This document shows positions 37,678 through 49,296 of a stretch of DNA of 64,000 bases, in pieces; within the stretch, counting starts at the first letter, position 1, and each line of letters opens with the position of its first letter. The stretch is taken from assembly GCF_022846255.1 (NCBI RefSeq), contig NZ_AP025682.1; one strand, written 5' to 3'. The position numbers were made by a program, and so were the translations under genes. Below the pieces are notes generated by a model that was not told the origin of the DNA, searched no databases, and saw only the letters and a list, made by a program, of their open reading frames with translations. This stretch comes from Escherichia coli (GTDB taxonomy: Bacteria; Pseudomonadota; Gammaproteobacteria; Enterobacterales; Enterobacteriaceae).

Positions 37678-38352
37678 TTATTTTCCCCACAAACGGCGGG
37701 AAAAATCTTCGATCTTGCCGCTAAGTCGGCGCTTTTGCATCGTTCGCGTCCAGCTTTTCGATAACCCTGCGGCGGAGAGTAAACGGTGATACTGATCGTC
37801 ATCAAACGGCATATGCCATGCGATGGCGGCAGCCTCCTGCACGGTCACATCGCTGACACGGGAAACCAACTCCAGCGGCGCATCAGCAGATACCAACCCT
37901 GGTGCAATTACGCTATACAACCACCCCACTTTACCCGTGTTTTGCATCAACTGCGCTATATCGCTGATATCAAAATGGTAATTGAGTTTATAGCAAGGTG
38001 AGCGTGGCTGGCTGACCTGAATTAATGCCTCTCCCCAGCGGAAAATATCACCAATATAAACATTACTTTCCGTCAGACCGTCGGTTGAGAGATTTTCGCC
38101 AAACGCAGGCGCAACAAACAGCTCCGCCTGTTCCGGAAATTCCCGCGCCCAGTAGAGATAATGCTCACGAGGATAATGACACAGCGCTCTGTCTGGCCCG
38201 CCGTGGATCTTTTTCTCCGCCTGTTCGTCACCTTCCAGCCCCAGGTCCGTCAGCATCAACTCACCATCAACCTGGATTTTGGCAATTGCGCTGGGTTTGC
38301 CTTCGGGATAAGCCTGAATCTTGCCTGTGTATACATCAACCGGATATCGCAT
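37678..38352 (-). CDS. yiiM: MOSC-domain protein YiiM
   Basis: 224 aa from MRYPVDVYTGKIQAYPEGKP. Confidence 0.85.
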   Translation of the reverse strand: MRYPVDVYTGKIQAYPEGKPSAIAKIQVDGELMLTDLGLEGDEQAEKKIHGGPDRALCHYPREHYLYWAREFPEQAELFVAPAFGENLSTDGLTESNVYIGDIFRWGEALIQVSQPRSPCYKLNYHFDISDIAQLMQNTGKVGWLYSVIAPGLVSADAPLELVSRVSDVTVQEAAAIAWHMPFDDDQYHRLLSAAGLSKSWTRTMQKRRLSGKIEDFSRRLWGK

Positions 38353-38500
38353 CTGTTCCCTCTCCACGAGAAATTTCCCCATTAGACCATATTTATTTTA
38401 TGTCAGGCGTGCTGTTTTCGCGGTAAGTATCCAGGCAGAAACGCAATTGAAAACCGGACGAACGTTAGTTCATCCGGCTGTGGGGATTAAGGAAGTTGGT

Positions 38501-39202
38501 TTATTTCACCGTACCTAAAATTTCGATTTTCGCCGCTCTGGCTTTGACTTTACGTGACCAGATAGAGGTAAGAATTGGCACCAGAATCGAAGTCACAATG
38601 ACCGCCGTCGCTACCAGCGAAGTTGCTGCCGGAGCCATAGGTTTAAACGCAGGCACCATTTCTGCAATCAGCACAGGTGTCGCTACCGCGGCCCCTGCGG
38701 AACTGGAAGCGGCAATTCCGGCAGTGCCCAGAATAATCATCGTCATGAGCGGCCCGGACTCCAACGACATCAACACAAATGCCCCAGCTTCTTCTTTTGT
38801 GCCGTACTGCTGCATGATGGAAGCGTAAAGTCCGCCGTTGGTCATATCCATCGCCGCCACCAGCGCCAGCGTTGAAAGTCCGGCAAAGAATCCAACTTCA
38901 ACACCATGTTCCGGAATAATGCGCGAGGCAATTGCCGCAACCACCCACGCGACGGCAATTTTAGTTACCACCAGCGTACCGGATTTACGCAGTACCGTTC
39001 CCGTCGCGCTTAATTTTATTGACGCCCCCATGCAAAAAAACCACACCGCCAGAATGGGCACCGTACCGGTAATCATCCCGTTGGTGAATGATCCAAAATA
39101 TTTCCCCGCCCCCGGCGAGAAGGTGTGGCACAGTGCGCCAAGGAATAGCGGGACGAGCATCATCCCCCCCGGGATTTTCTCAATCGAGCGTTTTATCTGC
39201 AT
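38501..39202 (-). CDS. kdgT: 2-keto-3-deoxygluconate permease KdgT, apparently shortened by an in-frame internal deletion (233 aa versus about 327 aa recalled for K-12)
   Basis: N- and C-terminal segments look KdgT-like but the ORF is about 94 codons short; possibly nonfunctional. Confidence 0.6.
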
Positions 39203-39461
39203 TTCCATCACCTGTCGGCATATTTTTAAGGGCTGATGCGTAATTCCTCAACGGAGCATCAATGTTGATGAAAACGAAGATAGACATTCATTTAATCAAT
39301 AAAAGTGATCAAAACCACATCAATTGAAACACTGTTTTATTTTTATCAGATTATTGTTTTTATTTTGAAATTAATCACAAAAAAACCACCGCCGTTGGCG
39401 ATGGTTCATTCTTTAAGCTGATATGCGGCGTAAACGCCTCATTGCAGCAGGCGGCAAATGA

Positions 39462-40082
39462 TTATTTTTTCGCCGCGAAACGTGCCGCTGCTTCGTCCCA
39501 GTTCACCACGTTCCAGAACTCTTTGATGTAGTCCGGACGGCGGTTCTGGAATTTCAGGTAGTAAGCATGTTCCCACACATCCAGGCCCACAATCGGGAAG
39601 CCGGAAGCGCCAGAAATAGCTTCACCCATCAGCGGGGAGTCCTGGTTAGCAGTAGAAACCACCGCCAGTTTATCGCCTTTCAGCACCAGCCATGCCCAGC
39701 CGGAACCAAAGCGGGAAGCTGCCGCTTTCTCAAATTCTGCTTTGAAGTTATCAACGGAACCGAAGTCACGTTCGATAGCCGCTTTCAGGTCACCCTGCAG
39801 GGTGGTGCCTTTTTTCAGACCTTTCCAGAACAGACTGTGGTTAGCGTGACCACCAGCGTTATTGCGCAGTACGGTTTTCTTGTCTGCTGGCAGCTGGTCC
39901 AGTTTGGTGATCAGCTCTTCAACCGGCAGGTTAGCGAATTCTGGCAGGTTTTCCAGCGCCGCGTTGGCGTTGTTGACGTAAGTCTGATGGTGTTTGGTGT
40001 GGTGGATTTCCATGGTCTGCTTATCGAAGTGCGGTTCCAGGGCATCGTAAGCATACGGCAGGGATGGCAGGGTATAACTCAT
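39462..40082 (-). CDS. sodA: manganese superoxide dismutase
   Basis: 206 aa from [32 protein letters not shown]. Confidence 0.95.
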
Positions 40083-40367
40083 ATTCATCTCCAGTGTTGT
40101 CGGGCGGCCGATTGTTAATGCCGCGTAAGCAGTTGGTTCATTATAGTTAATTAAATGATATTGAAAATGATTATCAATGCCGTACTTTTCATAAGGGTAT
40201 GGTTTTGCAGGAAAATGCCCAAGATGTGAAGCAAATCACCCACTTAATGCCGTGATTGCCAGTAAATCGGCAGCGGCGGCAACAGGCGAAAGGTTAATCG
40301 ACAGCTCAATTTTTACACTCATCTCGTCGGAGATGTGACGCGACGAAAAAATGATGAGGATAAGAAG

Positions 40368-43411: not shown

Positions 43412-46170
<2,759 letters not shown>

Positions 46171-46175
46171 ACACT

Positions 46176-46675
46176 GCCGGATGCGGCACAAGTGCCTTAT
46201 CCGGCCTACAGGTCAGCAACAGTTGTAGCCCTGATAAGACGCGACAGCGTCGCATCAGGCATTGATTGCCGGATGCGGCACGAGTGCCTTATCCGGCCTA
46301 CGGGTCGGCAATAGTTGTAGGCCTGATAAGACGCGACAGCGTCGCATCAGGCATTGATTGCCGGATGCGGCACGAGCGCCATATCCGGCCTACGGGTCGG
46401 CAATAGTTGTAGGCCTGATAAGACGCGACAGCGTCGCATCAGGCATTGATTGCCGGATGCGGCACGAGTGCCTTATCCGGCCTACGGGTCAGCAACAGTT
46501 GTAGGCCTGATAAGACGCGACAGCGTCGCATCAGGCATTGATTGCCGGATGCGGCACAAGTGCCTTATCCGGCCTACGGGTCGGCAATAGTTGTAGGCCT
46601 GATAAGACGCGACAGCGTCGCATCAGGCATTGATTGCCGGATGCGGCACGAGTGCCTTATCCGGCCTACGGGTCG
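46176..46675. repeat. tandem array of about 5.4 copies of a 92-bp BIME unit (two inverted REP elements per unit) between rhaA and rhaD
   Basis: unit starts at 46176, 46268, 46360, 46452, 46544 and 46636 with exact 92-bp period and a few point differences. Confidence 0.9.
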
Positions 46676-46712
46676 TGCATCCGACAACACCGAATTAACA
46701 GGAACACAGAAC

Positions 46713-47537
46713 ATGCAAAACATAACCCAGTCCTGGTTTGTCCAGGGAATGATCAAAGCCACCACCGATGCCTGGCTGAAAGGCTGGGACGAGCGCAACG
46801 GCGGCAACCTGACGCTGCGCCTGGATGACGCCGATATCGCACCATATCACGACATTTTTCACCAACAACCGCGCTATATCCCGCTCAGCCAGCCCATGCC
46901 TTTACTGGCAAATACACCGTTTATTGTCACCGGCTCGGGCAAATTCTTCCGTAACGTCCAGCTTGATCCTGCGGCTAACTTAGGCATCGTAAAAGTCGAC
47001 AGCGACGGCGCGGGCTACCACATTCTTTGGGGGTTAACCAACGAAGCCGTCCCCACTTCCGAACTTCCGGCTCACTTTCTCTCCCACTGCGAGCGCATTA
47101 AAGCCACCAACGGTAAAGATCGGGTGATCATGCACTGCCATGCCACCAACCTGATCGCCCTTACCTACGTACTGGAAAACGACACCGCGGTCTTCACTCG
47201 CCAGCTTTGGGAAGGCAGCACCGAGTGTCTGGTAGTGTTCCCGGATGGCGTTGGAATTCTGCCGTGGATGGTGCCCGGCACGGACGAAATCGGCCAGGCG
47301 ACCGCACAGGAAATGCAAAAACATTCGCTGGTGTTGTGGCCCTTCCACGGCGTCTTCGGCAGCGGTCCGACACTGGATGAAACATTCGGTTTAATCGACA
47401 CCGCAGAAAAATCAGCACAAATATTAGTGAAGGTTTATTCGATGGGCGGCATGAAACAGACCATCAGCCGTGAAGAGTTGATAGCACTCGGCCAGCGTTT
47501 CGGCGTTACACCACTCGCCAGTGCGCTGGCGCTGTAA
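46713..47537 (+). CDS. rhaD: rhamnulose-1-phosphate aldolase
   Basis: 274 aa from [25 protein letters not shown]; ORF track upstream extension lies in the REP array. Confidence 0.95.
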
Positions 47538-47546
47538 GGAGCAAAC

Positions 47547-47861
47547 ATGATCCGCAAAGCCTTTGTCATGCAGGTAAACCCCGACGCCCACGAAGAGTAT
47601 CAGCGTCGGCATAATCCCATCTGGCCGGAACTGGAAGCCGTGCTGAAATCTCACGGTGCGCATAACTACGCCATCTATCTCGACAAAGCGCGTAATCTGC
47701 TATTTGCCACGATAGAGATTGAATCTGAAGAGCGGTGGAATGCGGTTGCCAGTACAGATGTTTGCCAACGTTGGTGGAAGTATATGACCGACGTTATGCC
47801 AGCTAACCCGGATAACAGCCCAGTCAGTAGCGAGCTGCAAGAAGTGTTTTACCTACCTTAA
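47547..47861 (+). CDS. rhaM: L-rhamnose mutarotase
   Basis: 104 aa, [30 protein letters not shown]. Confidence 0.9.
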
Positions 47862-47901
47862 TGAGTTGCGGTGCCGGAAAATATCCAGCACCGCGCCTTC
47901 A

Positions 47902-49296
47902 TCAGAAGAAGTATTTAAAGCGAACGCGTGCGCCGTAACGGTCATCAGTATCATCACCGTGTTTTTTATCACCGTCGCTATCCAGAATGGAGTAATAAGT
48001 ACCAAGGTAAATATTAAAGTTCTCCATATCCATCACATTAGCGAACTGGTAAGACGCATGAATGGTGTGAATGGTGTACGTCCCTTCATCATCAATCCAG
48101 CAGTCGTTATCACAAACTACACCGCTGAATTCATCAATCTTATTGTGCGCGTAGATATAACCCAGCTCGAAACGTTTCCACAGCGCGTTAATCCCGGCAG
48201 TGAAATCTTTCTCATTATTAGCATCTAAATAGGCGGTATTAAGATTAACCACGACGCCATTTTCCGGATCCGTTTTCAGGCCATTCCAGGTCATGCTCAT
48301 ACCATAGCCGGTACGATCGGACTGATCGACAAAATTACCCTTGCTATCGGTATAACCATAAGCATTATTTACCATATTCGCTTCCATCGCTGCGGAAACG
48401 GTGAATTCTTCCGTCGGCGACCAGGCAATTACCGGACGCAGATAAGCAACATTTTTCTGCTGTTCCATATCGCGTCCATGATAATTACCGTCGTTATATA
48501 AAGATGTTCCATCTTCCAGTAACGTGTTTAATTCAAAATACCAGTTATCGAGTTGTTTGCTGACGAGGAAATTACCGCCAGCGTTAGAACGTCCGCGGCC
48601 CTCTTTCATCATATAGATATAACCGCTGCCATCGTCATAAAGATCGTTCGCAGTATTACCGGAATGTTCAACAAAGGTATCCTGACTCAGCGGGAACATA
48701 TCGTAGGCTTCAAAACGGCCTACTTTGACCTTCCAGTCGTTTTCTTTGCCAAAGAAGAAAACCGCATCATCGATATTTACTGAACCGTGCATATCCCCCA
48801 GCGGTTGTACGGAGAACCCAGCGAAATAGCCATTATCCAGTTTTCGCATACCATCAAAACCTAACAGAATACGACCATTGAGATTCCACTGTTCATTAGT
48901 GGGATCGCTATTCACATCAGCGTTGGTCATTGCCAGCAGGCCATGATTACTTTCCGCATCCATATTAAATTCTACGTCACCGTAGATTTTTAAATCGCCA
49001 TACCCTGAAAGCAGGAGATTAGGCGGGGTGGCGTTTTTCTTCTCTGACTCCGTCGTTGATTGACCGTTTACCGGCGTGTTGCCCTGTGCGATCTTAATTT
49101 CGCGGATCTCGGCGGCTTGTTGTGTCTGAAGCTGTTTAACCTGCCCCTCTGCTTTTGCTGCCCGCATTTCTGCCGCTTCCAGGCGTTCTTCCAGCAATGC
49201 CATGCGTTGTTCCAGCGTTAAATGCTGTGTTTTTGCCATACCGGTACTACATGCCAATAATAAACCGATGGCTAAAGATAATGTCGATTTTTTCAT
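47902..49296 (-). CDS. outer-membrane porin, probably substrate-specific (carbohydrate-porin-like), with N-terminal coiled-coil extension
   Basis: 464 aa; signal peptide; coiled-coil LEQRMALLEERLEAAEMRAAKAEGQVKQLQ; C-terminal FKYFF; 353-bp AT-rich upstream region. Confidence 0.5.
   Translation of the reverse strand: MKKSTLSLAIGLLLACSTGMAKTQHLTLEQRMALLEERLEAAEMRAAKAEGQVKQLQTQQAAEIREIKIAQGNTPVNGQSTTESEKKNATPPNLLLSGYGDLKIYGDVEFNMDAESNHGLLAMTNADVNSDPTNEQWNLNGRILLGFDGMRKLDNGYFAGFSVQPLGDMHGSVNIDDAVFFFGKENDWKVKVGRFEAYDMFPLSQDTFVEHSGNTANDLYDDGSGYIYMMKEGRGRSNAGGNFLVSKQLDNWYFELNTLLEDGTSLYNDGNYHGRDMEQQKNVAYLRPVIAWSPTEEFTVSAAMEANMVNNAYGYTDSKGNFVDQSDRTGYGMSMTWNGLKTDPENGVVVNLNTAYLDANNEKDFTAGINALWKRFELGYIYAHNKIDEFSGVVCDNDCWIDDEGTYTIHTIHASYQFANVMDMENFNIYLGTYYSILDSDGDKKHGDDTDDRYGARVRFKYFF

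Follow-up and report, generated by a model that had tools for sequence, protein, structure and literature searches.

Locus and gene organization

The window is the whole stretch of DNA that was analysed, 64,000 nucleotides of the Escherichia coli contig NZ_AP025682.1. Its kdgT gene, assigned to the proton-coupled (H+) importer of the sugar acid 2-keto-3-deoxygluconate (KDG), lies on the minus strand between yiiM (downstream, 37678-38382) and sodA (upstream, 39462-40088), and is present as a shortened allele with the following features.

38501..39202, minus strand: shortened kdgT allele of 702 nt, stop codon counted, encoding 233 aa from an ATG at 39202 to a stop codon at 38501-38503 (ORF list)
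38501..38710, minus strand: 3' part of kdgT that is kept, corresponding to intact residues 259-327 and encoding the ASSSAG loop, TM9b, TM10 and the C-terminal helix (comparison, AlphaFold model, Pfam)
38711..38728, minus strand: deletion junction, sole remaining copy of an 18-bp direct repeat (base-by-base comparison with strain 104)
38729..39202, minus strand: 5' part of kdgT that is kept, codons 1-158, from TM1 to TM5, of which TM4 is broken (residues 111-118 and 123-133) (AlphaFold model, Pfam)
39203..39461, minus strand: upstream region of kdgT, the kdgT-sodA intergenic region (terminator scan and SNP tables)

In the six-frame ORF list the reading frame spans 38501-39211 and encodes 236 aa when read from an in-frame upstream GTG, or 233 aa from the ATG. 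The gene order cpxA-yiiM-kdgT-sodA-rhaT is the same in the window and in strain 104, as expected of an orthologous locus descended from kdgT. Intact kdgT of E. coli (strain 104, WP_001166063.1) has a length of 984 nt and encodes 327 aa. Compared base by base with this gene, the window gene is exactly 282 nt, or 94 codons, shorter. Its left flank corresponds to gene positions 1-492 and its right flank to the last 228 nt, the two overlapping by 18 nt at 38711-38728. The missing residues are 165-258 or, equivalently, 159-252, and the 233 kept residues show 100% amino-acid identity to the intact protein of strain 104. The window protein is identical to WP_001528065.1. A megablast search with positions 38300-39400 against 5,426 complete E. 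coli genomes, essentially all of which matched, gave top records in two pieces that spanned 1,383 bp against the 1,101 bp of the query, which again leaves the window 282 bp short.

An earlier note on this DNA had described a 233-aa kdgT ORF between yiiM and sodA, had taken full-length KdgT of K-12 to be 327 aa long, and had proposed an in-frame deletion of about 280 bp (about 94 codons) with its junction near 38711-38728. The ORF list and the synteny confirm the ORF, the length of the intact E. coli gene agrees with the one it gave, and the pairwise comparison with intact kdgT sharpens the remainder: gap, junction and peptide all agree, the gap being exactly 282 bp and the flank overlap in the repeat covering precisely that interval.

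The closest complete genomes are approximately 99.0-99.2% identical to the window over 18 kb and are of the B2 type, e.g., ATCC 25922 and Nissle; the nearest loci are found in the draft assemblies GCA_976941965.1, GCA_039879505.1 and GCA_012104055.1. Elsewhere in the window, the rhaB-rhaA-rhaD region (45000-48000) shows 19-46 SNPs per kb relative to ATCC 25922, together with a 92-bp indel at 46497-46588 and a 10-bp indel at 46689, probably reflecting either DNA imported by recombination or differing REP elements. Three E. coli plasmids in the complete-genome set carry a kdgT homologue approximately 90% identical to the chromosomal gene (e.g., NZ_CP172870.1, 86171-86452).

The direct repeat and the origin of the deletion

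The sequence at the junction belongs to an 18-bp direct repeat, GGCACTGCCGG[G/A]ATTGCC, which encodes the peptide GTAGIA. Intact genes contain a proximal copy, GGCACTGCCGGGATTGCC, and a distal copy, GGCACTGCCGGAATTGCC, which are 282 bp apart, identical at 17 of 18 positions and both translated as GTAGIA. In the protein the copies occupy residues 159-164, at the end of TM5, and residues 253-258, in TM9a. This is the longest and best direct repeat within intact kdgT. Its presence twice in intact genes and once in the window is the endpoint pattern of a slippage-type deletion, and the earlier suggestion of a deletion between short direct repeats encoding GTAGIA is thereby upheld. The window junction retains the distal copy GGCACTGCCGGAATTGCC (minus strand), with base A at the variable position; if the parent gene had the usual G/A pair, the crossover fell within the first 11 nt of the repeat.

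The repeat in the DNA follows from the protein, in which the same hexapeptide is used twice with nearly the same codons (17 of 18 bases). Misalignment of the two copies may then remove one of them together with the intervening sequence and keep the frame. Replication slippage, which is RecA-independent, is the likely route; short-homology recombination would yield an identical product. The in-frame outcome is forced by the spacing of the repeats, as 282 = 3 × 94, and an open frame thus needs no selection. Repeat analysis of the intact gene gave no convincing inverted repeats or hairpins able to bring the direct repeats together. A reading of the two GTAGIA motifs as symmetry mates of the inverted repeats of the fold (a 'repeat-unit swap') was rejected, the motifs being located at the end of TM5 and in TM9a, while the mate of TM9 is TM4.

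Predicted protein structure and probable loss of function

A PDB sequence search with intact KdgT gave no match, even at E values up to 10, and the fold was therefore taken from AlphaFold and Foldseek. A first search for homologues gave only sequences at least 86% identical, too shallow for modelling, and a search of representatives clustered at 50% was used instead. The AlphaFold model of the intact protein and the invariant columns are based on an alignment of 49 sequences. The model (pLDDT 89.4, pTM 0.85) contains 10 TMs with breaks in TM4 and TM9, located in the intact protein as follows.

Residues 13-28, TM1; residues 32-60, TM2; residues 68-95, TM3
Residues 111-118 and 123-133, TM4a and TM4b; TM5 ends at about residue 160
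Residues 168-187, TM6; residues 189-211, TM7; residues 216-247, TM8
Residues 254-258 and 264-276, TM9a and TM9b; TM10 from residue 278

In Foldseek the intact model was closest to the ASBT homologues 3ZUY/8OYF, with TM-scores of 0.65-0.68; further matches were 4N7W, SbtA and NhaA-type antiporters. In ASBT, TM1, 2, 6 and 7 form the panel domain and TM3-5 together with TM8-10 form the core; TM4 and TM9 are broken and cross at the substrate site. By analogy, we take TM6 and TM7 of KdgT to be half of the panel domain of an ASBT-type elevator transporter, and TM8 to be part of the core domain.

The segment deleted in the window, residues 165-258, comprises TM6, TM7, TM8 and TM9a of this ASBT-like fold, leaving only TM1-5, TM9b and TM10; these are the several transmembrane helices that the earlier note had supposed to be removed. 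The three residues invariant in the family, P177, G181 and G211, all lie inside the segment, as do the near-invariant G185, G223 and G226. Intact KdgT covers positions 1-305 of the Pfam model PF03812, while the window protein covers only 1-157 and 247-305, a loss of 29% of the model. The intact model displays the ASBT/BASS arrangement of two inverted 5-TM repeats with crossing TM4 and TM9; the window product does not. Modelled from the same alignment with the segment excised, the 233-aa product reached a pLDDT of 75.6 and a pTM of 0.64, and is moderately confident for most of the chain, though pLDDT falls below 50 for residues 163-168 (the junction) and 37-44 (within TM2).

In the native fold TM5 and TM9 are parallel, with three full spans between them, all of them lost here, so that TM9b and TM10 would be forced into the opposite orientation. 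With TM6-8, TM9a and the native orientation of TM9b and TM10 gone, the crossed TM4/TM9 substrate site is not expected to form. From the predicted structure and from conservation, KDG transport is very likely lost in the 233-aa allele. What had earlier been called probable inactivation is thus strongly backed by structure and conservation, and the loss itself stands as a prediction.

It is improbable that the recurrent deletion was selected, either because a loss of KDG import is adaptive in some host-associated lineages or because the seven-helix remnant has acquired a new activity. Were this the case, the activity might be, e.g., a dominant-negative or scaffold role, and the duplicated GTAGIA codon repeat would amount to a built-in, one-way genetic off-switch of the transporter. 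Quite improbable, too, is a 233-aa protein that still works, as a shortened transporter with altered specificity, an oligomeric half-transporter or a regulator of another carrier, and whose deletion was positively selected. The ORF is intact in every copy seen, but the in-frame result is dictated by the repeat spacing described above. AlphaFold retains most of the helices at pLDDT 70-90, but the invariant residues and nearly a third of the Pfam model are gone, the number of full TM spans removed is odd and incompatible with the native ASBT topology, and none of the diverse family members examined is a natural homologue with such an architecture. The upstream region and the start codon are kept, the allele arose repeatedly, and one version of it is found on at least 1000 contigs; among complete genomes, however, it reaches only 0.15%, and several of its descendants carry radical substitutions at conserved sites.

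These descendants belong to approximately 25 amino-acid variants of the 233-aa protein in public data. Radical or conserved-site changes on the deleted background are G75D, G31E/V, G104R, L16P, W54C, P49H, N122S and a proline-to-leucine change at the equivalent of P303, and the private kdgT changes of strain GmM077 comprise two nonsynonymous and no synonymous ones. These variants are consistent with, and no more than suggestive of, relaxed constraint after the deletion. All deletion copies seen have an open reading frame, and at least three haplotypes share the dominant protein sequence unchanged, which could reflect the youth of the alleles or residual selection on the product.

Recurrence across lineages

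The 6-7 kb around kdgT were aligned for 20 carriers (L002-L014 and L016-L022), two intact strains and the window. The deletion occurs on at least four or five haplotype backgrounds, a recurrence that is new relative to the earlier note. Background (a), the window type, consists of the window, L013 (2 SNPs apart) and L018/L019 (4 SNPs), the last two with an additional L158M beside the junction. Background (b), L009, shows no SNPs relative to the intact strain 104 (L001) over approximately 4.1 kb, the deletion aside. Background (c), the EC28 type, contains L002, L003, L005, L007, L008, L010-L012 and L020-L021. WP_001528065.1, found in EC28, MS1657, ECO20 and others, is the same 233-aa protein with the same junction as in the window, on a different nucleotide haplotype: synonymous differences at three kdgT sites (38696; 38869 and 38888) flank the junction, and the flanks diverge by about 1%. 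On the basis of these differences, the window allele is most likely independent of the EC28-type allele.

Background (d), PM06121/L014, has the same kdgT as the EC28 type, with 23 differences confined to the sodA side; both types are compatible with one origin plus recombination. Background (e), GmM077, carries G31E and G75D. The differences among EC28, PM06121 and GmM077 could reflect a single deletion spread by recombination. Background (f), L016/L017 (GCA_049390185.1 and GCA_013068185.1), is approximately 2.2% divergent from all others across the 6.7-kb locus and has five private kdgT SNPs; in this Escherichia lineage the deletion is accompanied by V70I on 23 contigs. Background (g), L022 (Logan SRR7591054 contig 58), has at gene positions 475-492 the junction GGCACTGCCGGGATTGCC with the proximal G, where all other carriers have A. 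Because the proximal G was kept, the crossover in L022 lay in the last six bases of the repeat, and L022 is a molecularly distinct, independent deletion event. For backgrounds (a), (b), (c) and (f), the simplest explanation is that each arose in a further event of its own. The G junction of L022, the intact-like haplotype of L009 and a divergence of up to 2.2% among the backgrounds are the marks of independent recurrence at the GTAGIA repeat, which thus acts as a mutational hotspot.

A single ancient deletion spread by homologous recombination, with no mutational hotspot, is very unlikely. Recombination is frequent in E. coli, and for the EC28- and PM06121-type alleles, with identical kdgT and all differences on one side, one origin with a nearby breakpoint is a fitting account. 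It does not extend to L022, whose junction has G rather than A, or to L009, identical to an intact-allele strain across 4.1 kb. Sites that distinguish the alleles of the window, EC28 and L016/L017 flank the junction at distances of 15 bp and 141 bp, and under a single origin conversion would have to have occurred repeatedly, in tracts only a few hundred bases long with the deletion at the centre of each.

Other in-frame length variants of kdgT in E. coli and Shigella comprise deletions of 58, 45, 26, 16 (S. flexneri), 10 and 4 aa and an 82-aa tandem duplication (P0296, P0298, P0297, P0097, P0049, P0034 and P0002). Most of these variants have their endpoints within or close to the region of TM5-TM8. 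Where a contig count was listed, the variant was on no more than one or two contigs, which identifies the GTAGIA repeat as the dominant fragile site of the gene. P0002 (409 aa) was considered as the reciprocal duplication at the GTAGIA repeat and rejected, as its 82-aa tandem duplication is unrelated and has other endpoints. Overall, we hold it to be highly probable that the window carries a loss-of-function kdgT allele made by deletion between the 18-bp direct repeats, in a gene that is a recurrent hotspot for this event.

Frequency and annotation

Of the 5,426 complete genomes, 5,417 contain the 282-bp segment. The junction was searched with a 36-nt probe, which intact genes by design match over fewer than 28 contiguous bases, and was found in eight of these genomes (0.15%): EC28, ECO20, ECO21, MS1657, PM06121, VTB96929v, S87 and GmM077. 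The nine genomes that lack the segment are these eight carriers and one genome without the whole locus; with all absences accounted for, the repeat-junction deletion is the only route of segment loss in the complete-genome set. Public data contain the exact 233-aa protein in 1,692 index blocks and on no fewer than 1000 contigs. Members of the kdgT family down to 28% identity have lengths of approximately 300-345 aa and align through the segment, and none is a collinear homologue of similar length to the window protein, the one finding that the earlier note had named as speaking against a deletion. As the segment is found in nearly all genomes and in distant homologues, the 327-aa form is ancestral and the 233-aa form derived. 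Misassembly can produce repeat-flanked deletions, but the chance that the repeat was merely collapsed in assembly or sequencing is practically nil, the repeat of 18 bp being far below read length and the same junction recurring in eight genomes that different laboratories finished independently, as well as on at least 1000 contigs. A search of the literature for this deletion and for kdgT pseudogenisation in E. coli gave nothing relevant.

In all seven carriers inspected, the PGAP entry for the allele is an ordinary CDS named '2-keto-3-deoxygluconate permease', without a pseudogene flag and without a gene symbol. That automated annotation would treat the gene as intact had been anticipated in the earlier note. 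The deleted protein reaches 407.8 bits, in two stretches, against the NCBIfam kdgT equivalog TIGR00793, below the curated cutoff of 453.8 bits and short of a full-length family match; the intact protein reaches 617.8 bits. The low score accounts for the dropped symbol. A structurally crippled transporter has been deposited as an ordinary protein (WP_001528065.1 and approximately 25 variants), and metabolic reconstructions and pan-genome tables will score KDG uptake as present in carrier strains. The deleted allele would show up if length or coverage were compared with TIGR00793. Being homoplasic, the 282-bp deletion can serve as a clonal marker only if flanking SNPs are checked as well.

Regulation and persistence of the allele

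According to Pouysségur and colleagues, whose work concerned the kdg regulon, wild-type K-12 reportedly grows on KDG only when the system is derepressed, which suggests weak selection on kdgT in many niches. Yet more than 99.8% of complete genomes have an intact kdgT, which is therefore not generally dispensable. As a gene that is repressed by KdgR and that E. coli can probably do without in most of its habitats, kdgT may tolerate the deletion as a nearly neutral change, and the allele could in this way persist and reach appreciable frequency in some lineages. KdgT serves the uptake of exogenous KDG, an intermediate of pectin and hexuronate breakdown, and its gene is repressed by KdgR (PMC4784465, PMC6958661).

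The upstream region contains the terminator of sodA at 39407-39383, located by a terminator scan of the kdgT-sodA intergenic region. A scan of the region for the sigma-70 consensus gave no site and is uninformative on expression. A palindrome at approximately 39322-39342 resembles the KdgR-box consensus and may be a KdgR box; it has a lineage-private base at 39331. Between 39242 and 39454, approximately 12-15 SNPs are private to the window lineage (the window, L013 and L018/L019) relative to all other E. coli compared, whereas the surrounding DNA shows only 2-4 SNPs per kb relative to ATCC 25922. The best complete-genome match of the intergenic region is 98.1%. This cluster could be a recombination patch or the promoter decay of a dead gene.

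sodA and kdgT are on one strand, kdgT being the next gene downstream. For paraquat and one other compound, the Keio kdgT knockout is listed with the most sensitive strains (PMC9405208, Tables 3-4).

Comparison with known systems

KdgT of E. coli K-12 (b3909; 327 aa, WP_001166063.1 type; TIGR00793 / PF03812; TC 2.A.10 KDGT family) is encoded at the same locus with the same synteny as the window gene; in contrast to it, the window protein is without TM6-TM8 and TM9a and falls below the equivalog cutoff. The lesion is best described as a cryptic allele, very likely of lost function, that is mis-annotated as intact, recurrent and ordinary in kind. It leaves the fundamentals of KdgT biology and of deletion mechanisms unchanged.

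The structurally characterized proteins of the ASBT/BASS bile-acid:sodium symporter fold (ASBT_NM, 3ZUY/3ZUX/8OYF; ASBT_Yf, 4N7W) resemble the KdgT model in having ten TMs with crossing, broken TM4 and TM9, but sequence identity is only 14-16%.

Deletions between short direct repeats by slipped misalignment were classically described for lacI and for plasmid reporter systems. The kdgT deletion is like these in that its endpoints lie in a short direct repeat of which one copy is kept, that the best repeat of the gene is used, and that the crossover point varies inside the repeat. It differs in that the repeat is imposed by a duplicated peptide motif of a membrane protein. kdgT thus provides a clean natural case in which a peptide motif that occurs twice in a membrane protein creates a DNA repeat and, with it, a fragile gene.
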